Below are positions 20,538-64,000 of a stretch of DNA of 64,000 bases, one piece after another. Below the pieces are notes generated by a model. That model was not told where the DNA came from, did not search any database, and saw nothing but the letters and a program-made list of their open reading frames with translations. How positions within the stretch are numbered: the first letter of the stretch is position 1; each line of letters opens with the position of its first letter. The stretch covers positions 100,378,001-100,442,000 of the forward strand of contig OZ260661.1 of assembly GCA_965285935.1 (NCBI GenBank), read 5' to 3'. This stretch comes from Ophelia neglecta. Lineage: Eukaryota. A program made the translations under genes and the position numbers.

Positions 20538-23500
20538 CTAAACTTTCTCTTGAGAGTCAAACGAAGCCATTGTAATTGCACTCAACTGACTCTCAGTTGG
20601 TATTGCATAAGCTTCAGTGGAGTTGTTTTCTGCAAAATCAATAGAAGGTATGGTGGTCATCTCTTCAGCTTCTTCTCTCAGAGCCTCTGCTTTCTCCTGT
20701 ATCAACACCTACAATACCAATGTAATAGCATAATGTACAGTACCTAGGGATACCTTCTTTATAAACCTCTAAAATCAATTAGAATTCACCAATTTACAAT
20801 ATATAATCACAAATTTATCTCAAACTGAAAATACAAATTTTCAACCTTTCCACATCCTATGATTAATAGGAGATATATACTTGAAATCTTTATCATTATT
20901 GCCAAAAACCAATACTTTATGCCCTTTTTTCAAATGAGTATGTATACAATTCAGTCACAAAGAATCACACATATGCCCAAAAATTACACAAGATGTTCGG
21001 TGGCAGAAAAGATAACTTTCTTTAAGTTTTACCTAAAAATATCTGCCTACCAACCTTAGCAGATGTGACTATTTGTTGTGCTGCCTTCTTTGGCAAGTGT
21101 TCCAAGGATTTGACCAACTTTTCTGGATCAGCATGAGCCACACTCTGAAGGCTTTTGTAACCAGCATTGAACAACTGCCTTGCCCGACCCTAAAGCAAAA
21201 CTAAAGATTAAAGCGGACATGATCATAAATTATTAAACTTGACATGGAATAAACGCTCCTGAAAATTTATTATGGCCCTGAATGTTTGCAGTTTCAGAGC
21301 CTACATTATTTTGTAGCCCTTTTATTTCACATTTTAGAGGTGTTGTACCTATAATTGTTTCCCAATTTGTCCATATTTTGCACACCTTGCAACCCTCCTC
21401 AAGAAAATTGCTAAATAACCCCAACCTTCCCCTCTGCTCAAATTCAGAAGTATGTTACTCCAAACTACCAGTATATGATATTATGCTTGCTTGTAATAGA
21501 CACTTCACACTGGAAATATGAATTATAATTTTCAAATCATAATCAATTTCTTAATCGCTGATGACCTCATTCCTCGGGGGAACCCCCCCCCCCCCCCTTC
21601 CAATTCCATGCCAAACCAACAAATGAACAATATTTTCCACTTCACAGAACTTGTTAAACTTACAATTTTAACCCCAGGAATCTCCATAAGTGGGATCAAT
21701 TCCATTGTCACACAGTAAGACAGCTTCTTTACAAAATTGGCAAACATATCTTGGTAGGCCCAGAATTCTTCGAGCTCCTAAAACAGGTGAAAGGGGGAAA
21801 CTTTCAGTCAGTATTTTTCTTCATATTGTGAACATTAGTGGATTATAATGTTGGTACATGTAGCAAAATCCCCTAATACATACATTTATGTATACATTGA
21901 ATAAAGCCATATACACTGCAATATATTTATCCAATCAGACCTTCTTATTATATTTATCTATATATTCTACTCTATCTATTGAGAACAAAATTATACATTT
22001 CTCCAGGTAAGAAAGTCACTGATAAACACATAATTTGGCAGGATGTAGATGTATGTAGCGGCAATAATAACCTGACAGAAATGAGACACACAGGCTGCAA
22101 ATGAAGCAGCCCCTGCCAGCAGCTGCTGAACAAATCCTCGGGGCAACTGGAATTTAGCTGAAACTTCCCATATGCTTTTTTGTTTCCATAGATTGTAAAT
22201 CACCAAAGTCAGATAGAAACGCTGAACCACATATTCATCTACAGGCTGAAATATAATATGAGGATAATTTAAAAATAATAACTCATCTTCCATCTTACGG
22301 ATAACAATTTCTATTTGCCAATGAAAGTATAGGAACTAGCAAAAATATTGTATACTTAATCCTTGGTGTTATACTAACAAGCTGTACACAAATTGCACAA
22401 TCAATTGTTAGGAGATAAAACAATTCATGGTCACCTTTCTTATTTTCTGACCTGAAGTCTTTTTGGCAATGTAACTCTCTGATACCCCAATGAGGGTTGC
22501 TACTCTTTGCTCAGCTGAATCCATACAGGACATCTGTGAAGGTGCAGCAATATTGAACAGGAAAAACTCGGTGTTATGACATTTCATTCTGACAGAAAAA
22601 ACTCCCGCATTATTTTTAAACTCAAGAGTTAAATATTGGATTGTAACCTGTGTGCCAAGCATGAAACCCTGTACCAACTCTTCAATTGTATACAGGGTAG
22701 GAAATTGGCTTCATTACATATTATTTACTCAATAACAGAGTAAACGTAATGTAATTTCATCTACCAGTGTGCTTAAACAGGCCATTGGCTACTTTTAAAG
22801 GCCTGCTCTAATGCACTGGATCTGGGTTGTAGAAATACCATCTAGTATGACAATTAAGATTGTTGCCTGTATATTTGATAGAAAATTGAGGAGAGCTTTG
22901 AACATAAAACAGAGATTGCATAGCATAACGAAATACATTATCAATGGTAGACAATGATTTAACAGGGCTAAACAATGAATGGTTATAATATACTGTATAG
23001 GAAGTGAAAGAGTTGGCATCATCATGATCATATTAGTCAATGCTCATCCTCCATTTGTTCTATCAAAAAGGTAGGGTGAAAAAAGACGGAGACAGTCGAT
23101 AGTTTACAAAACACTTTAAAATCCTTGTTACGCACCTCATCCAGATAGACCAGCCAGGTTGGTTTGATGTTGACAGCGTGGTCATAGGGGGTGACCAGAT
23201 ATAACAGGTGAAGATGACTGGCCACCACCAGAGACTCTGAGGCCTGGCAGAGGTCTCGGTACAGCATGGAGGCTCGGTCAATGTCAATAGAACCTGCAAC
23301 ACAAACCAATATTAAATAATCACATAAAGCGTTTTTTTAAAAGTTTGCAAGAACTGCCACATAATACTGGTATTTTTGGTATGTGTGTTCCTGTCAAACC
23401 TAGTCAGTTCAAAAAGCAGAGTGCCAGTTGCAGTCTGGTCTATGAAACTGATTGGGATGGAAGTTAGGGAAATAAACAAATTAAATAAGTGCATGAAAAG

Positions 23501-26500
23501 ATAGTATGCAGATCTGAATGCAGTAACACCTTTGAATGTGGCTCTGCCTAGATTGGTTACTTCAAGTAATGGAGGCTCCCCTGCTTTGCCTGGTGGAGTC
23601 GCTGTGACAAGGCCAATGTCCAGGAGATGCTGCACTGAGTTTTTCCCAAGTTCGACCACATCACTGCCCAACTGTGCACTTTGTATATAAAACAAAGTTT
23701 TCTTCAAAAGACCTTCGACAGATTCTGATGAAGGAGTAATCTGAAAGTAATTAGTAGTAGCATTTACACTATTATGAAATGGAAGTAGACTTTTTTAATC
23801 CTAGGTCAACAAATGCATTAAGTCTATAAGTATATCTTTTGACAATCAAGAGTATTTACTTCGCTTAAATCAATAAATAAGGTGTCAGTATCACACGGCA
23901 GATTTGCATTATTGTGTTTTTAGCATTGTTTCAGCCTATTTAAAGTACATGTAGTACCATGTGATAGCTGCCATATTCACAAATGGGACCATACCTTAAG
24001 CCCAATGGTTGTAAGTAGTAAGGATCTCAGTCCTTTGGCTTCTTCAAACAACAGGCTAGACTGGCAGTACTCATATGGTCCACTCACAAGCTCTAAAAGC
24101 TGTATTACAAAATCACAATTAGTTGGTATATTATATCTCAAACCTAATGTTTTCAAACACAAAATACTGAAATGCAAGTATTTAATATTACAGTGAATGA
24201 CAATATCAACAAAACCACTTTTTGCTTAAGCTTTTATCTGAAATTCTAAGAATATTTGTTGTATAGATCTAGGGAACATTGGGATTCGAGTACTACCAGT
24301 AGGCAAACTTTCAGGAAAGTCACTGGTCACAGAGGTTTGCCCACTTAGATCACCCAAAGACAGTTATTTAGGGACAATTACCAGTCAGTCTAACCTGTAA
24401 AATTTTATTAAGTATAAATAGGTCTACCCTAATAATTTGCTCAGTAAAAGCTATTTTTTGCCAGTGAACACTGGCATATTACTGAGCAAGGACTAGTGAA
24501 TATAAAAATTCTTCTGATAGACCGAGTAAGGTATGTTATTCTACAGGTCAAGCCATTTCAGGGTCATATGTAGATTTAACTGCACATCACTACAAGTTGG
24601 AGACAAGAATCAAGGCTCTTACTGTTATGAGTGTTATTCACATTTTTCATACAAACCATAAAAGCTTCCGCACTCTCAACATTTCAAGATGGTGTATACT
24701 ACTTGCCTTCTGTTTGTCTCTCTTCTGTAGTACGAGGATACTTTCACCAGATGTATCAATACCAGCTCGCCCTGCTCTCCCTACCATCTGCTTGTATTGA
24801 CTACTTGACAAGAAACATTGGCCAACATATGGACTTCGTAAAATAACCCTGGATAAATAAACATTAACGGATAGCAGTACTAAATATAATAACTGCAGAA
24901 GTATAATCCTACATTTATACTGATTTTGTATTTGCACAAAGCAGCATCAAAAGAGGTATTTCAATTGGAATATAGTGTTGAAAATGGCATTTAAATTGAT
25001 AGTGTTATATATAGAAAGAAATCAAACAATTTCATATTTCAGAACAATGTACCTCTTTGCAGGAAGATTAACACCAGCTGCCAGAGTTGAAGTACAACAC
25101 AGCACACAGAGTGTGCCCTCAGAGTAAGCCTCCTCAATCAACTTCCTCTCATCCATGGTTAGACCACTGTGGTGATAAGCCACCCCATAGGGTATTGTTC
25201 TTCTTAACACTGGGCAGATCTCACCATTACCGTCATGGTACAAGGCCCGTAGCATGGCTCTTCTTTCATCCTTTTTATGATTAGTCAACTCCCTAGAGAC
25301 AACATTATATAATGTACTTTTTATGGTGTTCATGCCTATATTGTATAGCTTTAAGGATTCAAAGCTGAACAGGGAGATTAGGGAGCAAAAGATATACATG
25401 TATTTATGGGTACAGTTACTCTACTCATATTAAATTCTAACCATTATATTTACTGATCCCTTGGGTTGTTTTTTTGTTTCGCTTTTTTTGGGCGGGGGGG
25501 GGGGGGGGGGGGGGGAGTTGAGTTGAGGAGGGGTATAAAGTATGTAAGGTGCTATTCAAAATAAAAAAATTCAACAACCTGTTTTTAACAACCATTGAAA
25601 ACTGGCTGAGCAACAAAAAAAAACTGAAGAAAGGGGGTCCTATTTCGGATATAAGCTTTCGAACTCTAATAGCCCAAAAAAAAGCAAATTTTGTTCTTAA
25701 TTTTTTCTCTGTAGGATTCATTCATGGAAACAGCTTGACTTTTGGATAATGCCTTTGAAAAGAAACCCATCAAAGTTTAATTACCCTAGAACACCCTGAA
25801 CAAATTTCTACCAGCATGACTAATAGCTCTAGTAATAAGAAGACACCTAGCTATGGTGTGACATTACCTTGCCATTAGTCTACATAACAGCTCTGTCACG
25901 TTTTCACAGTTCTTCTTTGTAGCACAAAACACAAGGCAGGACTTTTCTGGAACCACTTCCAGAACCAGCCCTGCAATCTGGTCAGGGTCTTTCTTCTTCT
26001 CTTCGGCAGAATACTGAAATCAGACAGACAGCTTTAATATTATCATACATATGTTCTTTAAATTATTTTTTTAATAAAAGGAGGTAGAACAATACTGAAG
26101 GGCCATTGTGGCTCTGCCCAAGAATGACAGGTGTCCTCTAAGAAGCCAATAAGTTGGGGGATATTTTGCTCTTTTTGAAGGCCCATGAAGTAGGAGTTAA
26201 TAAACAGATATTGTGGCTACTCAAACAAGCTGCAGGCAATTTTTTTTTTATCATGATAAGTAGCTGAAAAACTGTACATAAACCAACTTAATTTCCCCCT
26301 ATGTTCTGGTGTTGTACCAGGAATACCTCCAGAGCTATAGTGGCAAGTACAGGAGAAGATTAAGCAGGGGAACCTGTATGGATTTTGAGACTACAAGGGT
26401 ATTCAAGAGAGACCTAAACGAGTGGAAGGAGTGTTTTTTTATAATGACGAAAACCATGCCTTTATCTGCTTAATCACCATCCCAAAAACTGGCAATCTGA

Positions 26501-29500
26501 ACTTTCTGAGACAAAGAGAGGGAAAATTACATGTGGAAACTACTTTACATATAGAGAATTTATCTAATGCATTACTTCATAACAGGGAGAAAATATAGTA
26601 AATTTATAAAAATAAAGTCATTAGAACTGTACTCAGCTGAGATAACTCTCCAGGTTTGCAGTTTAAACTTCAACTTGAATTGAACTACAGTTAATTGTAC
26701 CTGAAATGTCGTTATCCTAGAGTGTTTGAGTTTCTCCACTGGACACAGGGCTTTTGGGTCAACTTCATAGACTGTGTCTTCCATTTTTACATGTTCAATT
26801 AATTCAACCTAAAATAGATCACAATACTTATTAAAGGGACAATATCATTCAGCTTTCTATTACTTCGATGACATGTTGTTGTAAGCTGCTTACTTCTTAT
26901 TTTTGTAGCATCAACTGATACAGAAGGAAACAGTTAAAAACCGTTTAGTTTTTACACTAGTGGCCTACACTAACCATAAAAAATTAAACAAACACTGAAA
27001 CAGGAAAGCTTTAACACTGAAGCACTGTCATTGATATTAAAAACAAAACATCATCTTACAGGTCTGAAATCGTTGGAATATACTTCTGCAGATAAAAACT
27101 TCTGCAAATCACTTATGTTGTTCAAAGTGGCACTCATTCCTATAATCTCTGTAGAACCTGGAAAGGAAAATCATCCAAATGAATATCACACAGTACTGAT
27201 GAGAAACTTTATACAGTGTGTATATTCAAAATGATTGCATACATGTATGCAAGATATCTTTAAAACCGAATAAGTTTAGGGTTTATGCCCTCACAAATTC
27301 ACTATACAGAACCTAAAAATATGACTATTCAGTGTCATCATTGGAAAGGGTAACAGATACAGTTGAAGCCAGTATTGACAGCTTTATGATACTGTTAAAC
27401 AGAAAATGTAGACAACTTACTACTTGAATGCATTACTTTGGTTAGAGTCATTTCTAAACATGCTCCACGACTTCCTCCCTCACCAAGCATGTGAAGCTGC
27501 AAGCACAGCCAAAATGTGGTTCTCCAGTATAAATAGTGACACTTTATTATCAGTACAATGCACTAGCTGTTTGCAAAATGGGCAAAAATTCAGCATTCAA
27601 GGGATGCAAAATAATTCAACATTTGAGGATATTTGGGAGGGGTCAGATATGAGGGGGGAGGGATCAGAATTCCCTCCCCCCCTTCACCTTTATTCAAATG
27701 GACTAGCCCTAAACTTTTCTGATTAATCAAATCTAAAGGGACCAAGAAATACATATATTCTTACCTCATCAACCACAACCAGTCCTATCTCTTCCAATCT
27801 GCCAGTTTCAATCAGACTATTGACTAACGAATTAGCTTTTTCAATGGTACAGATATACAGGGACTTCCTCTTTCTCCTCTTCCGGGGAGGAAACTGGCCT
27901 TTGCTGGCAGCATATTCCTCAACTAAGAAGTCTAGATCCAACGCAAATGCACTTATTCCTCTAACCTTTGGTATTAAAAGATTTAGTTAATGATTACAGC
28001 ATTTTGATAGGCATTTAACTGTAAACAAAATCCTAATTAATGGAATAAGAGTTGCAGCACTTTTTTGACACTTCTGGATTTTTACCAACCTTTTCTTGAA
28101 CAATTGACACAAATGGTAGAATTAATATTGCATCTCTCTTTTTCAGGAGGAGTTCCCTAAAAATAAGGATTTCAGCAACCAGTGTTTTTCCTCCACTGGT
28201 AGGCAATGAGTATATGAGGTTCTTCTCAGATCTAATGGCTTCCATTGAAAGACACTCCTTTTGCCAGTCTACAAAAGCAATATGATTTTGTGTTCTGTAT
28301 CCCATAGAAAGACAATTACCAAAACGAAAAGTCTGTCACAAAACAGATAGATACATACATGTATATATATTGTGATCCAAAAAAGCATTGACCAAAATCA
28401 CCATAAATGTATAATTCAAAATGTGGGATGATTTTACCAAACCCAAGCACAAACACTATTGAGATTCCCTTTCATATTTACCATAGAGATTTGTGATCCC
28501 TTTGACCTTCTCCAGTAAATCTTTAACCTTGGATGGAAGGCCAAAAAAGGGTCCAACATCATATTTAGTTCCTTCATGTTGCAATTCTGCTGCTTCCAGC
28601 ATGGCAATCTCCAGACTCTCTCGCCTCATTTCTTGAAGCTTAGTACTCTGCACAGTGGCAACTTTGGCATTTTTATGAAGCGTTTTCTTAATTTTGTCCC
28701 TGAATGAGTTTTTTGGCACTGTTGCTGCTTGTACTGATTTCAACACAGATTCTTTAACACTGATTGATGTACCTTGATCACCGAGGCGCTGAGCATGACT
28801 AGATAGGGTCACCGAGGTGTCACATTGTAAATGTTCCTTTTCAATTTTATCAATGTCAATGTTAGCAAACAAAGGGTCAGTGTCATTGAAGCTCTCATGC
28901 TGTGATAAAAAATAATCTGGTTCCTCTAACAAATTGTTTGAAAATAAATCATCACTAGATGAATATAATTCATTTGCTGTGCCATGTTGCCCTTTATGCA
29001 ATAGTTTAGCCGGGTCACATGGATTAGTTTCGCAAATAGCTCCAGCAACATCTTCCTTTGAAATCTGATCACGTTTGGGCATGAAAAGACTCTCACTGCT
29101 AGCTGAAGTATTTTGTGGACATTGTTTGGACATGAAAGAATTGTCTATCCATATCTGTTCATCTGAAAGTTGATCTGGTTTTGAGGCCACTGAAAATGGA
29201 ATGACAATATTCAGTATAACCATAAGAGTTGTTCAATTGTCAACACATTCGGTAGCTACCATACTTGGAAATATGCTCCCTCCCCTGCAAATTCTGTTTC
29301 GGTTACAATACCCCATACATGTTCACACTTTAAGGCTTTAAGTTTATGCTATATTCTATCAAATATAACATTACTGACTAAATACTAAATACCCCCTCCC
29401 CCCACCCTTCCTTAGGGACATTTATTTAAAATAGCAATGAGTTTATGGGTTTAAAACAATTAAAAACATAAAATCATGTTTAACATATCAAATAGTAAAT

Positions 29501-29651
29501 TACTTAAACCCTCCTTACCCTTGAGGTTGATTCCATTGTTTGTAGAACTTTTGAATCTTTTAGGCGTCTTCGTGCATTTTTCTAATAGTCGCTTTCTTCC
29601 ACTTGCAACTCTCCTAGTAATTTCAACACTATTTTCTAATTCAGATGCCAT
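20538..29651 (-). CDS. HELQ: HELQ (helicase POLQ-like), multi-exon
   Basis: ATG at 29651 (MASELENS); [10 protein letters not shown]; Walker [20 protein letters not shown]; DE|LH box; IIGMSATL; [22 protein letters not shown]; motif [23 protein letters not shown]; HLLYLVTP; [12 protein letters not shown]|GRARQL. Last exon 20538-20708 ([15 protein letters not shown]...*). No polymerase domain, so not POLQ. Confidence 0.96.
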
Positions 29652-30865: not shown

Positions 30866-33800
30866 ATGGCGGAAAGGGGACCTGGAGGTTCCGAAGTCGT
30901 CATTTTTTATGGCCCTCCCTGCATCGTAAGTTAATGCCACAGCAAATAGTTGTTTGCTGTTGTAGGAGAAACACATTTTGACCAAAAAGAAAGTATAATG
31001 TAATAAGTGTTTGACTTTTTTCATCGTTTAACTACCTATATGGCACGTTATGAATGGGCGATATTTGGTAGAGTCGACGTTTACTACATTGCATTTGAAT
31101 GTCAGACGACTCGGCACCTGGAAAACTCGGCCCCTATTTAACTCTGCCAACTCGGCCCCAGACACAGGACGACACGGCGTCTGCCTCAGGACGACTCGGT
31201 ACCTGGAGCCTGGTCAACTCGGGACCTAGATTACCTGCATGGGCCTTACTCGAATTGATGTGTCAGAAGCTGGCACTATAAGAATATCTTTTCTGGTATA
31301 CTGAAATCGAATTAAACCACACTTTTTTAAGCTGCACCATGACCAGTCTGCAGGACGACTGTGCACCCACCCATGTTTTTCAACTTGACGTTTGACAGAC
31401 ATGTGTTGAAAATGACTCTTTTGCAATATCAGAGGCTTGCAGAATTTGTTCAACTCATTCGCTTCAACTTTATTTTATCAACCCATCAACCAAATAACGT
31501 GTTCACAAATAGTAGGTTAGGATTCCTAGTATAGATAGTTTCAGTTCATAAATATTAGGTTAAGATAGTTTCAGTTCATAAATGTTAGGTTAGGATTCCT
31601 TGTATAGATTGTTTCAGTCTGGTAATCAAGCGAGTTATGGTTCCCTGTTAGGGTAGGGTGGTATTATAAGATAATTAGAGGCAGGCACCTAGAAGTCTGC
31701 ATTTGGTCAAACTAATGGTTCAGGTTCTATAGTCCTATGGCCCATTGGTCCTACGACCCATTGGTCCTACGGCCCATTGGTCCTACGGCCCATTGGTCCT
31801 ACGGCCCATTGGTCCTACGGCCCATTGGTCCTACGGCCCATTGGACCTACGGCCCATTGGTACTACGGCCCATTGGTACTACGGCACATCCTATAGCTTT
31901 TGAAAATTGGGGAAACCGGGAGAATGTTTGCTATTTTAAAGGTCATGTAATGTTACATATCTGTGAAATCCTGTGTTAAGGACGGTAATGGTAACTTACA
32001 TGTAACTTACTGGAAGACGAATATCATGTCTTGTTTATCTGTCCCAATTATTATAACCTGCGTAATTGACTCTAGGGAATATTGGGTTGTATCGCGTTGT
32101 AGGGTTATATCGTACTTTTTTTGTCTCTCCGACCAGCCGCGCTCCTTTTGGGAAACCCCTGACAATTTCGTTACGTCTCGGTAGAATTCGATCGGGATGT
32201 GCAAATAAACGTTATTTCCGGTATGTTTGGCGCGAAACCTGGCTGTCGGAGGGCGTGATGAGTTATCTTAAAATTTGCTCCTATTTGCTGGGTAAAAACT
32301 GTAATTCCTGCCATGTGGGAGAAATCATCCATTCCATAAACAATCAAAGGCCTTGCTAATTCCTCTTTATTCAATGAAATATTTCGTTATTCGTTACAAT
32401 TTCTTAATGTGTAATATCTTATTCGAACGGCATGAGTATCAACAATGGCCGACATAGTTTGACAGAAATATTCGGGTTGTATCGCGCCGAGGGTAGCCTT
32501 GAATCGTTACGGTTGTTCAGAACGTGATATAAGGCTACCCTCATTATTGCATTGTTATTATATAGAACCGGGACAGGACGGGGGCGGGACTGATATTTGG
32601 TCCTTGCAGGGCTCTCCGCTCTACCGTAGTCCACAGCTCCACGGAAGGGAAAAGAAGAGGGGACCCCCTCTACAGCTCCAGTGACGAGAGAAGAAGGGAT
32701 CCCCTCTACTGCTCCAGTGACGAGAGAAGAAGAGGGGACCTCCTCTACAGCTCCAGTGACAGAGGGAGAAGAGAGGAACACCAAAGAGAATATGACAAAA
32801 TGTGACATTTGTTCAAAGTGGGCCTATAATGAATGCGCTGGCCTAGGCGGCAATACATCAAATTATATTTGTAATTGTGACTTTTGCCAAAATTAGATTT
32901 TGAAAGCGTTCTCATTGGGGGGGGGGGGGGGGAAATATAGAATCTAGCCTGTATAATTACTGTCGTTGGACCTTTGAATTTTTAGTTAGGGACATGAGGA
33001 AATTTACATCGGAACTTTTGACGTTGTTCCTGATATCGTTAATGTTGACATCAGCACAGCTCAGTTGGCTGTATATTCGTGACTTAACTTTTGCAATCCG
33101 GCGATTTCCAACCTTAGATATTGTCACTTTGCCAAACTTCGATAATTATTAGTTTGGCTTTTATTGCATTTTAATGTTGAATTTCGTATAATAAAATATA
33201 ATAGCGATACCGTGGGCTATAGGCCTATATGTCATTCATTTTTAAATCTTATTCTATAAGCATAGGCCTATGCCATTCTTTTTAGAATGTTAATTGCCAA
33301 TCCTAGATTATTATTTACCACTCCACTTTAATTGCCAGAAGTGAAGCTCTGAATACTGAGTTCCAGCTGCTGATACAATACCCTTTTGTTCAGGCCAACG
33401 AAACCTATAATGTCTTTAATTCTTCAACATCAGAATGCCTAAGTAGGCCTAATAATTTGAATTAAAAGAGATCTACTATGCCCGAATGGGCCCCCTGATC
33501 AATAATAATGGCCTTATATCGTAACATATTTTCGGCTTATATCATCTTTTGTGGCCTTATATTGCGGCATGATGCTAGGCTGTCTCAAAAGCGGTATTAC
33601 CCTGCCTAGCACGATAATAGACAGCGTTTTTCAGGTAGGTACAAAACGTGTTCCCGCCCTGCGCATGAGCTCCCTAGCTTGGCGGATTTTCTCAGGAAGG
33701 CTTTGAAAGTCCATGCTTCTTAATGCGAATTAGTTTAATTGTTGGTCATTATTTCGATTTAATTGGTCATTTATTACTATAATTTTGTTTTAATAATAAC

Positions 33801-36800
33801 TGGTTTTATTTATTTATTTATTATTATTATTATTATTTTTATTAATGACCATTTCTGTTTAAGTTCCTCAGCACGGTCAACAATTTTAACGCTGATTTGG
33901 TTTATTATATGGTGTACTAATCACCAGCACGCAGTTATGTTTTTTCATCATTAATCTGCAGGGTGTTATCTCACACTCAGAGACTAATTTCATCTACATT
34001 GTTCAACAGAATGTAAACATTTGTAAAACAACAGTTAGTACGTAGATCTGAATCAAAAGAGATAGGCTATAGAGCGCTGACTGTCCTCAGCAGTCATGTG
34101 TCACGTAGTTATTGAGCAATGTCGGGTTATTTTACGCAGCAGTGCGCGAAATTTCCCGACTTTACCCTATATATACCAATAGGTATAGAAGTAGGACCAA
34201 TGGGTCGTAGGACCATGGGCTGTAGGCCCAATGGGTCGTAGGACCCGGGCCCGAGATAATAGGACCAATGGGCCGTATGACTAATGGTCCGTAGGACCAA
34301 TGGGTCTTAGGACCAATGGGCTGTAGGACTATCGACCAGGCCCCAAACTAATGACCAATTTAAATTGATATCTTTTTCATAACAGTCAATGTAAGAAAGT
34401 GTTAATGAAGGGCAAACAGGAGGCTTAGAATTTGGCACTTTATTGAATAGCCATAAATCGGCAAAAATTTTAGTTGGAGTTGTGCGTCATGCCTATAGGA
34501 ATCAACATCATGCTTTACACACTGTTGTATCTAAACAATTTCCGAATGAAAGTTTCAGGTTGCCCAGGAATCTGGGCGTTATTAATGTGAAGACCTAGGT
34601 TTTGTTTGTGAGTTCAAAGGACAGTAGTGCACCGTCTTAATTGGATATAGCCAGACTAGCGCCAGACTGAACACTCCTCCTGCTGGTGACCGCTAATCTC
34701 ACATGGCGATCCCCCCCCCCCATGTTAAGTAAATGCACACCAAGGCGATGCCGCTCTATTCATTTTATTTCGATTGCTGCCTTTCTGAATCTTTTACCAA
34801 ACCTGTACAAACCTATATAATATACAAACCTAGCAAAAATAATCAGCTTTATAGCTTAATATAGCACTGAGAGTTGAATTGTATCTGCTACAATACATAT
34901 GTAAATGTCAATAGGTATATTATTACTTTGAAAGTAGGCTTGGATGTCAGCTCTAAAGTCGTCCATTTTCACATTCCTTTAATCTTCTGTGTGAGATTTA
35001 ATGCTGGACTATTGGCTTTGTTTATATACTCGTGGGCAAGGTTAATTTAAATTTGTTAAACATTCAGAAATTGGTGTCTTGGCAACAAATACCAGGTACA
35101 TATTTAGTTCTACCACAATAGTTTCCTGCTGAATATACAGACAAGCATAATTTTTGCTGTTTTATTGCTCATTTAACCCATTCAATTCATTCGTGTGCTG
35201 AGAGAATTGTTATACAAGTCTGTGGAAAATGAATTTATGAGATATATATATATATATGTTACATTTCTTTTTTGCAGGGAAAGACTCATTTCTATCATGA
35301 AAAACTCGCAGGAACGCATCGTAGAATATCTCCATGTGAATTGTGGTCAAAAGACCCCAACATTACTATAAGACAAATAATCAATAGATATGTCGTGACA
35401 GGTTTAAAAGAGGTAAGTTTTATTTGGTTATGAGGAAGTGTTCTTTGTTGTTCAGCTTGACATTTTTTATGGTCAAAATGCTTCCATTGTTCCACTGAAT
35501 GCACTGTCCATCTGGCATATGGTCATCTGAAAGTTATAGTATAAAAGCGGGCACTAAGGCAAAAGACTGGCAGGAGGTCGTCGCCAGCATCTGAAAGTTA
35601 AAGTTCAGCTCCTGGTACATTAAGGATTTTTATGCCTGATTTGTTTAACCAAATACTTAATTTGGGAAATTTAATTTGCATTGCATGCATGGAAGATATT
35701 TCCCAAACGGAGAAAAATACTTCTTTACGAAAGGCAAAATTAATTAGGGGAGAGGGCTCGAACCAGAGGGGTGGGGGTGGGGGGGGGGGGGCGGTTTGCT
35801 CTACCAATGTTTACAGGGTGGAAAGAGTGGAGTTGGGGTGGTTTTTATTTAGATTTGCCCAATGTCAAAATTATATTTGTTTCCATTATATAGGCTGGAA
35901 ATATTGTTCTTGATGACAGATTTGAATCTAGCAAGACCAGGCAATCATATCTAAGTCTCATCGGTGCAAAGGTAATTATTTATTTTGTCAAGAAACTATC
36001 CTTTTTCATTTCTATTTAAATATTATGTTACCTTATATCATTACTGTATAAATATCATGTTACCATACCCCTGCTTTCACCCATAACTTGACACATCCCC
36101 CAGTCTACTGTCTACAGTACCCGTAGTTCTCATTTCCAATAAATTGCATGCATTATAATATATATCTTGATTATCATGTCATTATATTATAAATGTTATA
36201 ATCTTCATGTATACTATACTGCTCCAAATGTACATTTAATTTAACAGTTCAAAATTTCAGGTACCTGAAGCAAGCTTTAAATGTCTCAAGTTTCAACCCC
36301 TTTATGGCCAGTGGCAGCTAAATTTAGCAAGGGAATATTCTATTGCTCATAGTGTTCTGATTGGAAAACCAAAAGCCATTCAATCTATTGATGAATGGTT
36401 TGCCATAGAAGGTACAGTATACATGATGATAGATTATATATGTTTCTTTTAAGTACTATCTTCTTTCCGACTTAATATTTGTATTGGTGACATGATAATC
36501 AACTACAGGGTTTCGCCAAAAATAAATGGTAAAAGACTTGTACATTATGGGTTCAAATTTTCATTTGTGGCTCAAGAATGGCCAAAACTAGGTCAGATCT
36601 GTAGCTACTAGCTAATGTCACAGATGATACATGTGATTGCTTGTGGTCAATGCTTGGAATGACCTGTGAGTGGGTACATATGTATTTACAAATTAATCTC
36701 TGTTTGGCACCTGGTTGGTTACTTGGTATCCGTTTAAGTGTAACCGTATATTGTAAGTGGAGTTTATCATTTTTATGAGTTTTGTTTACAATATAAGAGT

Positions 36801-39800
36801 TCTAAATGCATAATCATTAAATACAAACTAGGGAATCCTGAATCAGTATAAATATACATGATCAGTGATTCATTTAGATATTTGGAGGTATTAGGCACTT
36901 GTGAAAATTTACTAGGTCCTCTGTGTAGTTTTAAGGCCCTCATGTTGAAATTTAGTGAGCCATGGGACAGTGCAGGAGTGCATCAATGTAATCTTGAGTG
37001 CAATTCCTTTTAGAAAATTGCGAGTCAAAGGACTTGGAACAGAGGTTGAATGAATCACTGCATGATGTATATGTTGTTTTACCAGTTATTGATTTAGTCC
37101 TGAATGTGAGTTTACTTTTTAGAGCCACCATCTGAAGATGAAGGTTTTGGGATTGAAATAATTACTAGGGGTCTGAAGCTTTATTCTGCATACTTGGTAA
37201 GCTGTCTTTATTACAATACAGGCATTAGCGATTACCTGCGCTTGAAAACTAGGGACATTGTGGGCATGAAATACGCATGGGCCCATGATCATCAAGAATG
37301 ACAAAATTCTACAACAAATAGGTGTTTCATTATTTGGGTTCCTTCAAAAAGTTTCAATTATTCAATTCAGAAGGAGGTTTTGCTCATGTCATTTTCTCTA
37401 CTTCATGGTGCAAAATAAATGGCTTGGTCAATATGCATCTTTCTGGCTTACCTTCAGTGGGTAGAATTAAGGAAAATATAATTACCTGATCGGAAACAAT
37501 TTTATCAAATTCAAACGAATGTTTCTTATTATATGGCCTTTGAGCTAATGTGGAGATTCATTGCCCATCCTTCCCTCTCTTTATATATCCATCATAGTCT
37601 ATATTATGCACCTTTAGCCATATAGGTTCACTGTTTCCCATCTAAATTACTTATTTGTTACTGGTGACGACCTCCAGCCAGTCTATTGCCTTAGTGCCCA
37701 TCTTATTACTACTACTTATTTGTTATGATTAGGAACTATGGCCTGGCAACAGACCTGTCATAGAATCTTAACCTCTTGATCAATAAAGCAAACCAGCTGA
37801 AGCCTGAATGATCAGTTCAAGTTTTACCCTCCAACCTTGGTTATGACTTTTGGCCAGGTCCGCTTGGGGTTTTTAATCTCGCTGTATATTTAGGCAGATA
37901 TCCTAGGGAAATATATCGTTTATATTTGAGGTCAGATAAAATATTGTTTATTGACCATTTTTATGAGGGCAGACAATTTTTCAATTTTTAAGTAGACTAA
38001 AGAAATGCTCAATGCATAGTTATTGGTAAATACATGATCTATTAATATTAGCAAGATCAGTAAGATGTTTATGGCTTCGTCCCTCATACCTATGTACCTG
38101 TGCTTCCAAAGGCTTGGACTTTATTCAGGTCCACAAAAATGTGCCCCTTTAGCGGCTTTGACCTGAATACAGCTCCAGCAAGTGCCCTACATAGGGAACA
38201 TTCAAATGTCCACCAATAAATAAATGTTAGTAATTATGTACCTGACTCTGACTAGTCAAGCAAGTGATCCTCAAGTCGATTATAGGCTTTCTACTGGAAT
38301 ATTACTTGTTTCTTTTCATTGAGTTGGTTAAAAACTGTGTTTAGTGGAATGCAGGCTAATTTGTTAAAACTATAGGGGCATGGAAGACTTAGCAAATAAG
38401 CCTGCCATTAAGGGCTACTAGCTAACTAGGAAGGGGCTGGTGAGCGGGTTAATTAAGTCAATGAGAGAGCTTTAAAGATTAAATTGTTGGAGGAACTTGC
38501 ATTATTAATGCATTTTTTTTTTCAGTTGGAAAACCCTGCTCTCATTATCCAGTGGGAAGGCATGGTCAAATATTCTGATGGTACAGCTGACATAGTATCT
38601 GGAGTACACAAGACAATTTCTACATGGTATTCTGCTAACCCGTGTGGCCGAGTCATTATTGTACTTGACCCATCGTCCACCTCAGGAGGTTCGTTTCAAT
38701 TCAATTTGTAGTCAGATCTGTTGAATAATAATTAAATTTATTCCTTGTAATTTGTGTCTCTCAAAGTTTGATACCAACTGTTAAAACATTTTACTATTAA
38801 CAGTAAACTGAAAGTTTCCTTTCAGTAATGCTTTTTAGTGGATTCAAGCAAATTAAATCCCTTGAAACCGTTTGCACAAATTGTGCTTGTGTGTCATGCA
38901 AATTTCCATAAGAAAAGTGTTTGTATATATATTTTTTAATGGCAATTTTAGTCACTGGAGCTGAAAGAGAGGCACAAATGAAGTACATTTTGTTTGAATT
39001 AGTCAAAGAGGTATGTGACATCACCTGATATTTGTACGTCTCTTTTACCTGCCCGTTTGTGCATAGGGTTTCACCTTTGAAACTTGGGGCATAAGAAAAG
39101 TTTGAAACCATGCAAGTGAATAAATAATAAGGCTATCCCATATTAGGTGTCGGACTGCCCAGTATTTGCTGTAGCAATTGAGGAGGCTGGAGAAAAGTTC
39201 AGCAGGCCTCCCAATCCAGGTGTCTTGGCTTTCCTGGAAACTCTGCATTGTCTTGACTTTCGCTTTATGGTTGGTTTATTTTTTGTTATTAAACATTAAA
39301 ACATGTTTGGCATTTTCTTAACCCCTTCACATCACACATAGGATTAACTTATAGACTGGTAGCTCTACCTGAGACTGTACAAATGGCCGCCATGGACATT
39401 TCATGCATGAGTAATATGATTCTCATTCAAACTCTTCCAGGGCTCATTGATGTTATACCACAGCCCGCCTTTCATGAAAATGGCAGAACAAATGGGACTT
39501 AGGTACATGAAAGCTGGCAAAGCATTTGCAAATCCAAACTTGGTTAGTCCATTGTGTTATTGAGAGAGGATTTTGATATAATCTTTTTAAATTTTATGAA
39601 TCTAATAAAGCACTTTACTACCCGATAGTAATTTACATGTAGCTGTTTGACTTTTTGTTTGTTTTTGTGTAGATACTGATATCTCATGCTCACACAGTGC
39701 CTCTAGTTCCCGAGGTTCACAAAACCATGGAAATTTTGTCAGATTCGCTGTCTGCTGAGTATCAGCCATTAGTACCTTTAGTACATATGGCCAAGGCAAA

Positions 39801-42539
39801 AGCACATGTATACTACTCACAAAACCTGGATGGGGGCAGACTTCTCTATGTGTGTGCAAAAGAAAAAAGTGTACTTGAAAGGTGGGTTTCTTTTCTATGT
39901 ATTGAAAAGTATTAATTTACTGAATGGCATTTTTCTGTGGATTTAAAGTTCTTTATTGGCAAGATTTATCCATAATACTATTGGAAACAGATGGAGTTTT
40001 ACCTGATCAAAAACTATAAAAAGGAAAGCATTTAATTCTTTCAAAGTGTGTATTTCTGGATTTTCTTTTAGGTATACTGACCTTTACCAGAACCATGCCA
40101 CTTTGGTATCAAGTGGAAACTCTAGTCAAATCAGGGCTATGTCTAAACTAGTGACTCAGCAATTATCTTCACTCAGAAAGACTCCCCCAATAAAAAAACA
40201 AAAATCAGTTAGCCGTGGGTTACCAAAATGGATGTCAGAGAAATCTAATCCAACAAAGAAGAAAACTGAGTTGAAGAAGATACCACTTCAGTTGTTAACT
40301 CTGGATTCCTCTTCAATTGAAACTGAATCACCTGCAAAAAGGTGATTTTACAATTGTTATTATCTACTGCCATTTTATACTATACATCTGTAAGATGAAT
40401 GCCATTCACAAACCTATTCTCTTGAAGGTAAAATAGTTCATACATGTATCGTCTGTATATCATTTATTTGTCAGAAGAAAGAAAGGTAAAGATAAAGCAA
40501 AGACAGTGAGAAGTGTTGACTATATGTTAGATGAGCAAGAACTGCTGGAAGCTGCTAAGAAAATATGGCAACAAGTGAGTAGTAAGGTGCCTCACATATG
40601 AGTCCAACTTTTAATGCTCTGTTCCTTTAATATTAATTCCAAAAAGAAAGTATATTTAGTAATTCCAGAATCAACAGGCTATAATAAAACTAATTTGGTT
40701 AAACACATAAATGTTGTAGATCTAACTTAGAAACTTATAAAGGTTGTATAAAAAATTCCCTGTTGTGAAAACTGGTCTACTTGTTTTGCAAGGGAGCTAT
40801 CACTGCCAGTACATAGTGTATCCGTATAAACTTTAGGCAGGCAGACAGCTACCAAGTGAGGCTGAAATAGAACAGAGACAAGCAAGACCGTCTGCTAGTT
40901 TAAGGACCCTGCCTATAGAAAGCACATCTGCTGGAGAAACAAGGTTGATATTTCAATGCCTTTTTATTAATAAGCCTAATGATTATTAAATATTTACATG
41001 ATAATTAAAGAACCATGAGATTTTTATTGGTACAATCTTGTCGACTACTTTGCAGTCAACAAGCCCCGAGAAAGGACAAAAAAGCAGAAGCCTCCAAGAA
41101 AACTGTTCCAGTGGGCAAATCCACAGAATCTGACAGTTCCTCAGACTCGGAAGTATTACAGGATTTATTGAAATTCTCCAGCAAGAGTCGTCAGTCTAGG
41201 TAAACACATGATTAGATTTTGAAGAAAGATACTGTAGGTATTAACCAACTTTGTCCAAGGAAAATTACAAGCATTATGTGCAAATAAATTGTGCCTATGT
41301 TATTTACTATTCCCTTGTATTTTTTTTTCCAGTTAAACATATTTTAAAATTACAGCAAATCAATTGTGTTACTTTATTTGCAGATCAAGTCCATTGTCAC
41401 CAGACCCAGCCAAACCCAGGAAGATCACAGCTGTAGAGAAATCTGCAGGAGACGGTTGGGACATATTAGATATGTTTGTACCTAATACTTCATCCAATCC
41501 TTCGTCCTCTGGAAAATCCCAGAAGTCACAAAGCTCAAGGACCACCCAAATGGATAGTTATGTTTCTGAAACTGACTCTCAGAGGTCAAGTATCGGAAAA
41601 ATCAAAAGGTCACCTGCACAAAGCAGATTGGCAATGACCCACTCCCCAGATGACACAGTTATTATTGATAGTTTCTTTGATAGTTTTCATAATACTGACC
41701 AAACGTCAAAAAAAGCCAAAACTATCAACTTTGCAGTTCCACAACTACCTCCAGTGTCAAGGAATTCAAGTCACTCTAGCAAATTAAGTAAGTCATCAGT
41801 ATCAAGAGTGAGTGATAGCATAGTGTCAGAAACAAATAGCTCTAGTAAATCTATTCTAAGTCATAGAGCTGTCTCTTCTCCCACTTCACAAGTAGCTGAC
41901 AGCTTTGTGCCAGAAAGTAGTTCATCAACAGGAAGAAGGCTGTCTAATAGATCCGGTTTGTCTGTGAGAACAGTGCCCGACAGCTTGGTACTAGAATCAA
42001 AGTCCTCTAGGGGTACTCTGAGTTCAAGTAAGTCTGGTGGATCTCGGAGGACTATTCAAGACAGCTTAGTTCTGGGCACTAGTAGTGCATCAATTAAGGC
42101 AGGTAGCTCTGGTAAATCATATGGATCCAGACATTCAATAGCTGATAGCTATGTTCCTGATACCGATAGTTTAACTAGTATAAGGTCTCCCGTATCTGTT
42201 GGATCGAAGACATCTATATCAGATAGTATAGTGTCAAAAACAGGAAGTGACTTCTCTGGTCCTAAAAACCCATGCTCTTCTCCACAGAATAAGTATGTTA
42301 CAGATAGTTTAGTCCGTAATACAGGATCATCTCAACATTCAAACCAAAGGAAATCTCCCAGAAACTCTGGCCCTAGTGAAATTTCTGATGGACTGGTGCC
42401 AAATACTCCATCCTCTGGTCATCAGGCCTCAACAGTTTTGTCCAGCAGCTCTTCAAAGAAAAAGTCAATCCAAGATCACAGTGACTCACCTCCTAGTCCT
42501 GAACCGGACCAAGCACTGTTAGACTTGTTTAGATTGTGA
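30866..42539 (+). CDS. Uncharacterised ~976-aa protein: PNK-like P-loop kinase + degenerate HAD phosphatase + Ku-binding/MRI(CYREN)-like motifs + Ser-rich repeat tail; 15 exons
   Basis: GT-AG exons 30866-30925, 35278-35412, 35894-35971, 36261-36411, 37123-37196, 38526-38688, 38952-39010, 39147-39269, 39441-39542, 39673-39881, 40072-40341, 40475-40574, 40837-40943, 41056-41199 and 41384-42539 sum to 2931 nt in frame. Motifs: EVVIFYGPPCI|GKT, NIVLDDRFESSKTRQSY, EPPSEDEGF, ENPALIIQWEGMV, SRPPNPGV, RGLPKWM, YMLDEQELLEAAKKI. Confidence 0.82.
31099..31260. mobile_element. MITE/transposon end fragment with short actcggc repeats
   Basis: Several actcggc(a/c)cc units in ~160 bp, typical of subterminal repeats of non-autonomous DNA transposons. 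Confidence 0.45.
31718..34344. mobile_element. Mutator/Foldback-like element with subterminal 17-bp tandem arrays
   Basis: Left array (ggcccattggtcctac)n at ~31739-31885; inverted array (gtaggaccaatgggcc)n at ~34191-34328; flanking direct repeat (c)aaactaatg at 31708-31717 and 34344-34353 (9-10-bp TSD). Confidence 0.8.
32620..32896 (+). pseudogene. Transposase C-terminal remnant (short 33-36-bp repeats + PHD-finger half), probably from a nested pogo/Tigger-like element at ~31908-34167
   Basis: KCDICSKWAYNECAGL...YICNCDFC* resembles the terminal PHD of DDE_1 transposases. Weak inverted ends ggggaaaccggg (~31908) and cccgactttaccc-TA (~34167). Confidence 0.5.
36863..37060. mobile_element. MITE with 12-bp TIRs and 6-bp TSD
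   Basis: catgat|cagtgattcatt...aatgaatcactg|catgat. Confidence 0.75.
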
Positions 42540-47383: not shown

Positions 47384-50300
47384 TCAGTATGACGGGGATG
47401 ATGAAGGTTCAAAGTCCATTTCCTCAACTTTATTTTGTTGTACAACTTTCTTAGCCCTTGTGTGTCGCTTTGGTCTCTTGTCATTCTTAGGTTTATGAGA
47501 CTTGGTTTTCTTCCTTGCGCCTCCAACGGCTGCATCCCCTGCCTCGGAGTCCACACTGCTACTTCTAGACTGGTGCTCTACAGAGTTAGAGTGAATCAAC
47601 TCAGATTTAGCTGAATGCACCAGATCATGAAAAGAGTCTAGATCTCGCTTAATTTCTTTTGTATCCCGTTGTGCTGAAGGTAGCTCTGAAGTATTTGGAG
47701 CACTGATGTTTAAAGCATGTGTGGGCCTTAGAACCTGTCCTTGATTTTGTACATTCCTGACTCTATCTACCGGGTCTTCCATTGAAGACTCAGAGGAGTT
47801 TAAACTTGATATGGAGTCATTAGAAGACACTTTGGCTAGCTGCTCAACAGTTCCTGGGAACTTCAGAGGCTTCCACTCTGGTGTATCTTTTTCCTCTTTG
47901 ACGCGGTCTTCAACCTCATCATCAAGGACAATCAAATCTAGTTGTTCGTGCTCTGGCTCCGGTAGCTCATGTCGTAAAGGGGACTTTTGGTGATAGGTGG
48001 TCTTTCTTGGTAATAAAGGTGAACTACTCTGTGTAGGCACAGGGATAGGGCCAGTCAACACTAACCTACGAGCAGTGGCACTTTCTACAGGAAAGTTTAC
48101 ATGGTTATCAGGAGGAACTTCAAATTCTGGAGAAACTGCAAAAAAAGAAGGAATTGCCAATAAAAACTGTGTTTTTCTAAAATAAAATTAGGATATATTT
48201 TTTTTTATTTCTCATAAAATGTATTTAAACACAAACAGAGCCAGAATTAAGTGATAAATCTGCACAAAACAAGTCACATGTCATCACCTGGGAAATTTTT
48301 TATTTTTAAATATATGAAAATGAACTCAAGACTCTAATCACAGGTGGTTCAAAATACATGTATGTAAAATGAAAGTATGATTGAACATTACAACACCTAC
48401 ATGTATTAAAATAAAACAAGGCTGGATTCCACCCCCGGAATCACTTGTGCAGAATTTCTATTGAAAAGATTTCCCACCCTACCAGTCACCTTAGTTTCTA
48501 GGTACATGTTTTAATTTCCATTGGTATAATTAATGGGCATGTCTAATGAGGAAAAATGTCCTGTGGTTGGATGGAGTCCCTTCATCGAAGGGTCCCTTTA
48601 TCGCAGGGAGCATTGTACCACAATTCAAGCTGGACGTCTACTACTGAAAGAAGGTCTACTGCATTTATGTAGTCAAAAGTTAAAGTGTGCAAGGGATAAC
48701 TGAGGCCCTTTATTTTAGTCGAAAGTTAAAACTTTGGGGTGAGGAGGATTCTGAATTCAATGGTGGGGGACACCTTTTTAGAATTGGAAAGGCCTAAAAT
48801 TTATAATTATAATCATAAATATTAACCATTCATATGTGGATAATTGACTTCTGGCATAGCCAATGCATTGCTCCTAGTTTCGAGGTCATCTACTTCTTTC
48901 ATCAGCTTCGCCCGGTAGGTTTCTGTTTCTGCCACTTGCTCGCACAGCCCCTAAAGAGATATTTAAGTAAAACTAGAAATGTTAATTTCAACAATGAAAC
49001 AATGTCAAATACCAGTATACAAATTTCAATAGCTTATATGTTTAGAACTTGTGTCACTTTTCTGTAAAAAAATAAATAACTTTACCATTAATTGTTGATG
49101 GAGTACTTCATTTAAGTTCTGGAAGCTAACCACTGACTGAAGCTTGCCTCTTGCGTCCAACATTTCTGAGCTGACAACAATATAACATTAAATTATTTTT
49201 TGGTTATTCAAATATGATCCTATTTGATAGTTCTACAGCAATGGTTTTTCAAGTTGAACACACTGCTATGTTGGAATTCTGTAAATACAGTGGTTGGCTA
49301 AAGTTTTGTTCCATTTAAAGGTTTCTTTGGCATTTGATTAAATCTTTAATATAATATAAACTATTATTCCTTTCAGAGTGCTAGACAGACATATCTTATT
49401 TGAATAGGTACAGAGCATACATTCTAAATCCATCACTGCCTATTAGAATATAGTATACATGTATATCAATTAAATGTTAAGGATGTAAAAATCTTTTGCG
49501 GGGTGATCACCTACCTAAAGTTCTGTACAGTCTTGTTGAAGATTCCAGTATTAGGATTGACAGTTTTACTGCCATGAGCTCTGTACTCCGACTGGGATTG
49601 GGCAGTGTCCCCTAAATTCTCAACTTGAACTGGTAATCCTTGGAATGTTCTATAAACAGTCAGCAGTTTAAATCCTTTAACTAGACAAAGTTTTCTTTAC
49701 TTATTAAGTTGATCTTATTAAGATTTTTTCACTTGTTTTGGTAACTTTCAACTATATCAGGTGTTTCTTACCTGCCATTATTGATGAAAAATGTGTGATC
49801 AAATGAATGGATTCCATGGTTTTGAGCAGTGTTAGATGTGCACAGACAAAACAGAAAATTATTCATGTTAAGTCCAGGGAAACACTCCTTAAGATGCCTA
49901 TGAATGGCTCTCTCTCGCATTGACATTATAAAACTGGAGTTTCTTCTGAACTTGTACCATCCAACAACCTCCTACAATTAAATTAAGACAATCAGCTTAT
50001 AAGATTAATTTTTATGTCATTTTAAGTATCACTTTGTTCTTACATCATACATTAGCACCAATTACTATGAATTTTTAAGGTTACGCACTCGGTGTTGACC
50101 ATTTGTGCCTTTGACTGTCTGAAACAAATCCATCAATCTCTCTTGATCAACCCTACCACTGCTGTTATACCAATTGAACAGTCCAATACAGGGGACAAAA
50201 GAATAGACATCTGGAAAGACAAAAGTATTGATTTCTGATAAAAACACATATCTTAACCAGCTTAGCTTATACTTACATAGATAATTTGTGATATTTGTGG

Positions 50301-62261: not shown

Positions 62262-62424
62262 ATTGAAGAAATAGTTAAGGATTACATCCATGAGGATGAA
62301 GTCTATGAAAGAGTGCAGCATATCCTTGAGGAGGAGCTGGTTAAAGGACTTGGCAAGTCTTCCAATAAAGAGGCAGATATTAAGATGTTTCCTACCTACG
62401 TACGATGCCTACCTGATGGAACCG
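62262..62424 (+). CDS. HK: Hexokinase, conserved 163-nt second exon (gene continues beyond the window; candidate first exons upstream)
   Basis: tttcag|IEEIVKDYIHEDEVYERVQHILEEELVKGLGKSSNKEADIKMFPTYVRCLPDGT G|gtaaat. The KMFPTYVR..PDGTE signature, length and phases match exon 2 of vertebrate HK/GCK as I recall it. Confidence 0.92.
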
Positions 62425-62442
62425 GTAAATTAATTTTAAATA

Positions 62443-62504
62443 AGGCCGCCTACAAAACATGGATTTTTGTATGCACACAAAAATCCATGTTTTGTAGGCG
62501 GCCT
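62443..62504. repeat. Perfect 28-bp-stem palindrome with 6-nt loop
   Basis: aggccgcctacaaaacatggatttttgt-atgcac-acaaaaatccatgttttgtaggcggcct. Confidence 0.95.
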
Positions 62505-64000
62505 GAATTGTTACATAAATGTGGCTTATATGTTTTTTAAATGGGAAATGATTTAAAAACATCATCCCAGCCATTGACTCAGTAATATGCATGGTAAATT
62601 AATTGTGTTGACAAAAGTATCTACATTTACATGTACATGTACAATGCTTTACACAGTCTTTTGTTATATGTGATAATGTACCAAATAACCACATTACTGC
62701 AGTTCATTTTTAAGTTGAATAGTGGTTGACAAAATGCCCAATGTCTGCAGTGTTTCGTTAAATATATATTTAATTGCTTGTAATGTATTTGACCTGCAAT
62801 CCCTCTAACAGCTGACCAAATTAATAACCATGATTAAATTGTACTGGCTTTATCATTATTCAGTCTTTCAAATGACTACTAATTATTTAATGATCTTTTC
62901 AAGGAGGACAGCAATTATGGTGTGGCTAATAAAAAAATAGAATGAATCATTTAAAAAGAGGCTCATGAACACTGAACCAATCCTTACAGTATAACTAGTG
63001 TGTGGTCAAGTGGTCAAGTTTGTGGAGGGCACTAATGTCTTATCCAGTGAGGCAAGGCAGCCCTCCTCTTGTTTAAGGGGATGTTAATACATGTGCTATT
63101 ATTTATCTCTGGTTCATTAGGTTTTTCAGTGGCTGGTTTAGGCCACTGACATTATATCAAATACTAGTTTGTGCTGACAAAATGTCCTTTCCTACATAAA
63201 AATCTATTTTTAGTGAACAAATGGTTTCTTTGGCTGAATAGAGCCCACATTATATCATCATAAAAATCTGTGTTTCATACTTGTACCCTATACATCTTAG
63301 TGTTGACTGACAGGGGTTGCTGGATCTAAGTTTCTCCGGTACCTATTTCCATAAAATGTAACTGTTAAATTGCATTTATTTTGCTGCGAAGGCAGACGTT
63401 ATTTGAGTGGTGGGTACATCTATCAGTTGAAAAAAGGGAAGGAAAAAAGAGCTATAAATGTTAGTTTTTCTATTTTGTTTTTTCAAAGTGATCCTGAAAT
63501 ACCACTGTCATCCTAATTTTGAGTGTTTAATGCTAGGTCAGTATGAAATACTGAAGCATGTGATTGCTCAGAAATCCTGCAAGAAACAACAATAAATAAT
63601 AAGAGCAGAATCCATAATTTAAGCAGTCTGCCATAGATCATCTCTATTCAAAGTGTTCCATAAAATTAGAAGCTATAGAAAAATTATAAAAAAAAAACAA
63701 GCTAACTTTTCTACCAGTGTTCGCTGCCAAAATCCTATGGTGCATCAGTGAACTGACAGATCATATTTGTATAAGCTGTATGAATCATGACCAGTGATAA
63801 CCAATTTCCCAAGATAAAGAATGCAGGCCTGAGAATTTTTCTACAGATTCGAGTTTTCTGCCCCCCTTTTTCAAAGTTTCCCATCCTCATCCCTGAGAAT
63901 GGGGGATTGTCCAATACCTTTAATCATGCAATAATGAATATCTGCCTCTTTCAGTATTGTGTTAATGCAGTTTGCTCAAACCATTGCACCTACATTTTTT

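Follow-up and report, generated by a model that had tools for sequence, protein, structure and literature searches.

Gene structure and DNA evidence at the locus

The window, meaning the whole 64,000-nucleotide stretch of the Ophelia neglecta genome that was analyzed, contains a plus-strand gene whose predicted product ends in a CYREN-like tail (Table 1). All 14 introns of the predicted gene are of the GT-AG type, and the joined exons form a single open frame of 976 aa. For the stretch 40837-40943, one of the four options tried preserves this frame. The model is collinear with the Glandiceps talaboti protein XP_077992120.1 (E=9e-66, 27% over 605 aa), and because of this collinear homology the splice model is supported, the splicing itself being a prediction.

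The DNA of the motif region was recovered as single contigs from two runs of one sample, spanning 40018-42103 and 40018-42057, and the sole indel among those listed for these contigs is intronic. Both sequencing runs behave as DNA, with joints at the predicted introns absent from them. A genome search returned the gene as the sole locus of the CYREN-like/PNK family; that search is insensitive to the short motifs of a separate short CYREN.

A Ski2-like helicase gene lies head-to-head with the CYREN-like gene, the two start codons being ~1.2 kb apart by eye. It matches POLQ_helical (E=5e-12) and, among PDB entries, ASCC3, Brr2 and POLQ; by its motifs, we take it to be HELQ. A bidirectional promoter may be common to the two genes, both of them DNA-repair genes. 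Intron 1 carries a short tandem repeat together with its reverse complement, ~2.3 kb apart, and a Cys-rich, PHD-like fragment between them. By eye, this repeat-flanked segment resembles a transposon of foldback or non-autonomous type.

Table 1. Features of the window, with positions counted from its first nucleotide.
Feature	Position	Strand	Remarks
CYREN-like gene model	30866..42539	+	15 predicted exons, 976 aa
Exons 1-5	30866-30925, 35278-35412, 35894-35971, 36261-36411, 37123-37196	+	predicted
Exons 6-10	38526-38688, 38952-39010, 39147-39269, 39441-39542, 39673-39881	+	predicted
Exons 11-15	40072-40341, 40475-40574, 40837-40943, 41056-41199, 41384-42539	+	predicted
PNKP-type P-loop kinase fold	30866..37196	+	exons 1-5, aa ~9-165
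Capless HAD (GmhB/HisB/PNK3P-like) pseudo-phosphatase	38526..39542	+	exons 6-9, aa 166-315
Small conserved folded unit	39673..40110	+	aa 316-397; exon 10 plus the start of exon 11
APLF-type Ku-binding motif RGLPKWM	40214..40234	+	candidate KBM; aa 433-439, exon 11
MRI central motif, MuD-like strand and helix	40503..40574	+	aa 485-508, exon 12; Y491 = human Y54
Ser-rich tail, D-[SGM]-h-V-x-x-[TS] x10	41469..42407	+	last eight at ~27-aa period
C-terminal PDQALLDLFRL	42504..42536	+	degenerate form of the MRI-type X-KBM seen in relatives
Ski2-like helicase gene	~21990-29650	-	head-to-head with the CYREN-like gene
Intron 1 tandem repeat and reverse complement	~31730-31885 and ~34190-34345		
Cys-rich, PHD-like fragment	32630-32870		intron 1, between the inverted repeats
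Integrase N-terminal SAM-like ORF	156-755	+	weak match (E=0.016); likely a tyrosine-recombinase retroelement fragment
Long tandem repeat	2162-3082	+	306-codon open frame, ~38-aa units
Low-complexity open frame	47384-48187	-	267 codons, downstream convergent gene; no Pfam match
Hexokinase exon	62148-62540	+	PF00349, E=5e-6

A predicted kinase-phosphatase head precedes the motifs

The preliminary description had read the locus as CYREN-like from its short motifs. Those motifs are real, but the reading was incomplete: it missed the N-terminal 400 aa, and the protein is a PNK-like one of several domains, with the motifs as its tail. The structure of this head was modeled for the Glandiceps protein with AlphaFold2 on a 19-row alignment (mean pLDDT 70). 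The model shows a confident fold over residues ~18-435 and disorder beyond. A single-sequence fold prediction gave a pLDDT of 33 and was set aside.

Residues 18-186 of the model superimpose on the mouse PNKP kinase (3u7f; Z 14.2, rmsd 2.7, 142 aligned, 24% identity), which is also the best PDB match of the family profile (E=0.015). Residues 191-343 match HAD phosphatases of the GmhB/HisB kind, and 191-342 superimpose on E. coli GmhB (3l8e; Z 12.8, rmsd 2.6, 146 aligned). T4 Pnkp aligns across both the kinase and the HAD in Foldseek (335-346 columns, TM-score to target ~0.35). The third unit consists of a beta-hairpin and a long helix, mostly at pLDDT 71-95 in the Glandiceps model, with a pairwise identity of 0.23. 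Pfam returned nothing for P0004 (the Glandiceps protein), P0019 and P0003 or for 13 window exons; over the six relatives it gave weak single matches only, the best being AAA_33 at E=0.003.

Indications on the origin of the head diverge. Its language-model features are closest to viral AAA_33+PNK3P clusters of a protein atlas (score 0.93), whereas its best structural match is mammalian. No significant match was found by tblastn against 50,697 phage records or in PHROGs.

The catalytic residues were then compared across the window model and its six long relatives. The P-loop of the window protein, GPPCI/GKT, is intact and conforms to GxxxxGK[ST]. The GK[ST] element is whole in four of the seven sequences, including the window, and decayed in all three molluscs. 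The strand-helix junction in the model was used to infer the general-base position (mouse D396), which HMMER alignments place differently; Asp is found there in 0/7 sequences, with Cys likely in the window. T423 and R432, substrate contacts of mouse PNK, have given way to other residues in the head, and the equivalents of R395 and D396 are likely replaced as well, which makes it less likely that the head binds DNA ends in the canonical way. Motif I of the HAD is QW[EQ] throughout the seven long sequences (QWEG in the window, in place of DxDG). Its first Asp is absent from all 13 rows of the profile alignment. The HAD also lacks the GD motif. As read from these alignments, the HAD catalytic residues are lost, and on the structural model the kinase general base is likely lost too. 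The kinase-phosphatase head is probably non-catalytic.

A candidate Ku-binding motif and a central MRI-like motif are conserved in the tail

Exon 11 encodes KKQKSVSRGLPKWMS on the plus strand, with the R at 40214, and the following exon (40475-40574) encodes TVRSVDYMLDEQELLEAAKKIW, joined in frame over a 133-nt GT-AG intron. RGLPKWM and an MRI-like helix one exon later were found where the preliminary description had placed them. The RxxPxW core is present in the window and in five of six relatives, the exception being Bulinus, in which H replaces the Arg. The window motif also fits R-x-x-P-x-W-[ML], as it carries Met directly after the Trp. In the known system, MRI's A-KBM becomes folded on the Ku80 vWA domain, and Met after Trp16, the common residue there, raises affinity >30-fold, with a gain from this Met in APLF too (10.64898/2026.07.22.740027).

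The central motif corresponds to a region of MRI (residues 49-81, a 54-YCMN-57 strand followed by a helix) that drives multimerization (10.64898/2026.07.22.740027). An AF3 model with mutational support pairs T52/V53/Y54 with ERCC6L2 and R11/P14/W16 with Ku80 (10.1101/2025.11.28.691009). Four residues in the motif (Y, E, L and A) are invariant in all seven sequences, and a helix is predicted at this point in the Glandiceps model (515-528). Glandiceps reads TVYCMN, identical to human MRI 52-57 at 6/6 positions; the window is more divergent and reads VDYMLD. The position of V53, at which mouse MRI is modeled to contact ERCC6L2, holds D in the window, K in Mya and E in Bulinus. From the KBM Trp to the central Tyr, the human protein spans 38 aa and the six family members with a full core span 28-55 aa.

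Mean pairwise identity over the seven sequences is 0.64 for the KBM, 0.41 for the MRI-like motif and 0.33 for the C-terminus, against 0.13, 0.09, 0.02 and 0.04 for the linkers and tail and 0.23-0.35 for the folded domains. Both motifs are thus conserved far above the flanking disordered sequence (0.64 and 0.41 versus 0.02-0.13), a point on which the earlier claim depended. Conservation is a stronger test than shuffling. When the 576-aa tail was shuffled 20,000 times, R-x-x-P-x-W arose in 1.1% and Y-x-h-x-x-x-E-h-x-x-x-A in 0.025%. Both motifs in order and 20-80 aa apart arose in none of the 20,000, a generous figure since the second pattern was defined once the motif was known. In human proteins, RxxPxW is present in >600 (PMC4831024).

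Pfam MRI (PF15325) matched none of 13 window exons and none of six relatives; a genome search with it returned nothing, and no control rang in that search either. The motif region gave no usable match in the protein atlas.

The C-terminal motif and the repeat tail

DQALLDLFRL* closes the frame of the motif exons at 42539. All four complete relatives end in the strict pattern PD-h-x-h-L-[DE]-[DE]-I-F, a count that leaves aside the apparently truncated P0024 and P0028; the window does not match it, its motif being one residue shorter than those of relatives (e.g. PDLTYLEDIF). The published motifs for comparison are MRI-A, SETKTRVLPSWLTA, and MRI-X, VLKYVREIFFS (PMC4831024). LTYLEDIF of Mactra shares four of eight residues with MRI-X, with two further conservative changes, and is MRI-like, not XLF-like. 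The likeness of the C-terminus to the CYREN motif, which the preliminary description had called a loose one of XLF-like kind, is convincing in the relatives and MRI-type, although the window copy is shorter and degenerate. Taken against the published residues R11/P14/W16/M17, T52-V53-Y54-C55-M56-N57 and VLKYVREIFFS, the CYREN likeness holds.

The Ser-rich tail shows ten copies of D-[SGM]-h-V-x-x-[TS], a pattern defined after the repeats were seen, compared with a mean of 0.008 and a maximum of 1 in 5000 shuffles. The ~27-aa repeats read D-S-h-V-[PS]-[ED]-[TS], a candidate short motif, and Glandiceps and Patiria each carry two [VI]P[ED]T copies near their C-termini. Internal acidic-hydrophobic motifs (LLDEIF, LLDDIF, ILDDL, ILDMF) occur in the window at aa ~577-584, 618-623 and 684-693 and in the tails of relatives. 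Judged by their sequence, these may be extra copies of the C-terminal motif.

Relatives and taxonomic spread

The six long relatives are from Glandiceps talaboti (hemichordate), Patiria miniata (starfish), Mya arenaria and Mactra antiquata (bivalves) and Bulinus truncatus (snail), with one further protein; the named ones are annotated only as uncharacterized or hypothetical. Word-based searches with exons 10 and 6 singly found no homolog. An HMMER search started from exon 6 returned 17 hits, of which 12 were retained, namely Glandiceps XP_077992120.1 at full length and 11 exon-sized fragments. P0005, P0006 and P0015 were dropped as repeat proteins, and P0001 and P0007 because they had no scored stretch. 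Among the relatives looked up (10 of 12), one exon-sized fragment clusters with a protein of the annelid Ridgeia piscesae. A 13-row profile gave 5 hits among 7463 candidates, these being the long relatives other than Glandiceps. The tree of the seven sequences does not place the window sequence firmly (support 0.67).

As far as these sequences go, the presence of the family in molluscs and as an annelid fragment, beside hemichordate and starfish, implies a bilaterian ancestor. Genomic neighborhood was probed with NUP205 and CNOT4, two human neighbors of CYREN. NUP205 lies on C7, CNOT4 on C9 and the CYREN-like gene on C1, so that the two probes are unlinked to each other as well.

PNKP genes and partner proteins in the same genome

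Two other PNKP-type loci, both on C5, keep their catalytic motifs and the phosphatase-then-kinase order. By eye, the gene at C5:50855139-50865138 has an N-terminal FHA-like region; in that at C5:61512446-61522445 no FHA was seen, and motif I reads DIDFT.

The Ku80 of this genome keeps the equivalents of L68, Y74, D106, D109 and D116, while those of I112 and Q119 read V, positions after 106 having been assigned by counting. Its ERCC6L2 has the SNF2 core, VIGSSK and the ribbon-helix-helix domain (PF25806, E=2e-6), in which the spacing equals that of mouse T1213-I1223-Y1263, the MRI-contacting residues. A complex prediction of this domain with the MRI-like exon scored 0.02 and speaks neither for nor against an interaction. 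Pairing of the strand-helix motif with the ERCC6L2 ribbon-helix-helix strand is plausible.

Interpretation

The best explanation, to which we give a probability of about 0.7, is that the gene encodes an invertebrate CYREN/MRI-type NHEJ adaptor, with three CYREN-like motifs on a disordered tail that follows a folded PNK-phosphatase head, the head being probably non-catalytic. At DNA breaks, RGLPKWM would fold into the vWA pocket of Ku80. The central strand-helix would self-associate and/or pair its strand with the ERCC6L2 ribbon-helix-helix, bridging the translocase to Ku, and the C-terminal motif would add a second, weaker Ku80 contact. The head may act as a scaffold or as a nucleotide- or DNA-end-binding module, with the separate PNKP genes performing the chemistry. 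Vertebrate CYREN would have arisen from such a head-bearing protein by loss of the head and is likely its truncated descendant. Orthology to CYREN rests on the three short motifs, compared with published human residues.

In an unlikely alternative, the phosphatase is dead but the head has kept 5'-OH kinase activity; besides serving as an adaptor, the protein would then heal ends while tethered to Ku, much as WRN tethers its exonuclease via a KBM. The general-base Asp is missing at the model-inferred position in 7/7 sequences, the equivalents of T423 and R432 are replaced, and other PNKP-type loci exist in the genome. The P-loop can be argued both ways, being intact in 4/7 sequences, including the window, but decayed in all three molluscs. 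An acidic residue one position past the expected base, seen in 4/7, would favor activity. Some residual kinase function is conceivable because on recessed ends mouse PNK D396N retains 23% activity, and the base is absent from some P-loop kinases (PMC2764422).

Convergence is decidedly unlikely. In that case a PNK-like protein would have gained a KBM and similar short motifs independently and would bind Ku, yet would be no kin of vertebrate CYREN, whose true invertebrate relatives would be other small proteins. KBMs are indeed short motifs, and APLF, WRN and MRI all contain one (PMC4831024); no Pfam MRI match was obtained, and no synteny was found with the two probes. Independent gain is nevertheless hard to square with three different motifs in CYREN order and at similar spacing, with the 6/6 identity of the hemichordate to human 52-57, and with a C-terminus of MRI type rather than XLF type. 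A third reading, in which a disordered tail matches the motifs by chance, or in which a pseudogene or a wrongly joined model accounts for the locus, is scarcely credible. The splice model is predicted and 1-3% of shuffles contain RxxPxW by itself, but the frame stays open over 15 GT-AG exons, collinear relatives exist in three named phyla, and the motif-specific conservation largely refutes this reading.

The adaptor reading can be extended tentatively. The ancestral bilaterian CYREN might have been a Ku-tethered pseudo-PNK/phosphatase, possibly from a virus-type gene, whose dead head reads or caps damaged ends and so gates Ku-ERCC6L2 joining; vertebrate CYREN and its microprotein isoforms would then be the cut-off tail. 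We regard this as a doubtful but possible scenario.

Work on CYREN/MRI treats it as a vertebrate protein that is short and disordered. The adaptor reading would push the complete three-motif module, with a folded head, back to the protostome-deuterostome ancestor, and it suggests truncation as the origin of a well-known microprotein gene. The natural variants mark residues important to self-association and to the Ku and ERCC6L2 contacts, and a likely NHEJ regulator is named for gene editing in molluscs and echinoderms. Surprise is limited by a sea-urchin fusion of a PNKP-like protein with a KBM, already recorded in 10.1101/2023.05.26.542399. What is new here is the complete set of three motifs, an enzyme module that is decayed and reversed in order, and the presence in molluscs and as an annelid fragment. 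No further account of the CYREN-like/PNK family was found in the literature searched, which lay outside subscription journals, or in passages of 10.1101/2023.12.12.570754.

Comparison with known systems

The closest published precedent calls CYREN/MRI the least conserved NHEJ factor and reports, in one sentence, a sea-urchin PNKP-like protein fused to the N-terminal KBM-like motif of CYREN/MRI (10.1101/2023.05.26.542399). This fusion is very likely of the same family as the window gene. The passage available from that source names the N-terminal KBM only, with no mention of the central and C-terminal motifs, the domain order, the catalytic decay or molluscs.

Mammalian PNKP (FHA-phosphatase-kinase) provides, in its kinase domain, the closest match to the head in both fold and sequence. 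Compared with it, the window protein has the reversed order, lacks the FHA, and has lost the DxD and GD motifs. PNKP is recruited through XRCC4/XRCC1, whereas the window protein is likely recruited through Ku. T4 Pnkp shares the kinase-then-HAD order, at 12-14% identity. The viral AAA_33+PNK3P enzymes, unlike the window protein, have no known Ku motifs.

In APLF and WRN, a folded repair module is tethered to Ku80 by an A-KBM (PMC4831024), as is proposed here. Unlike these proteins, neither the window protein nor its relatives showed an FHA, PBZ, exonuclease or helicase domain in Pfam searches. APLF and WRN are not known to carry the MRI central motif.

Vertebrate CYREN/MRI (C7orf49) has the same succession of A-KBM, central strand-helix and C-terminal X-KBM on a disordered chain, and in most vertebrates Met follows the KBM Trp, as in the window. 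MRI1, at 157 aa, has no folded head, whereas the KBM of the window protein lies at aa 433, behind ~400 folded residues. Its tail of ~470 aa with tandem repeats, unmatched by Pfam MRI, also differs from vertebrate MRI. The window protein is not the short, almost wholly disordered, headless chain that defines CYREN and, because ~400 folded residues precede the motifs, it is best described as a CYREN variant rather than a plain member.
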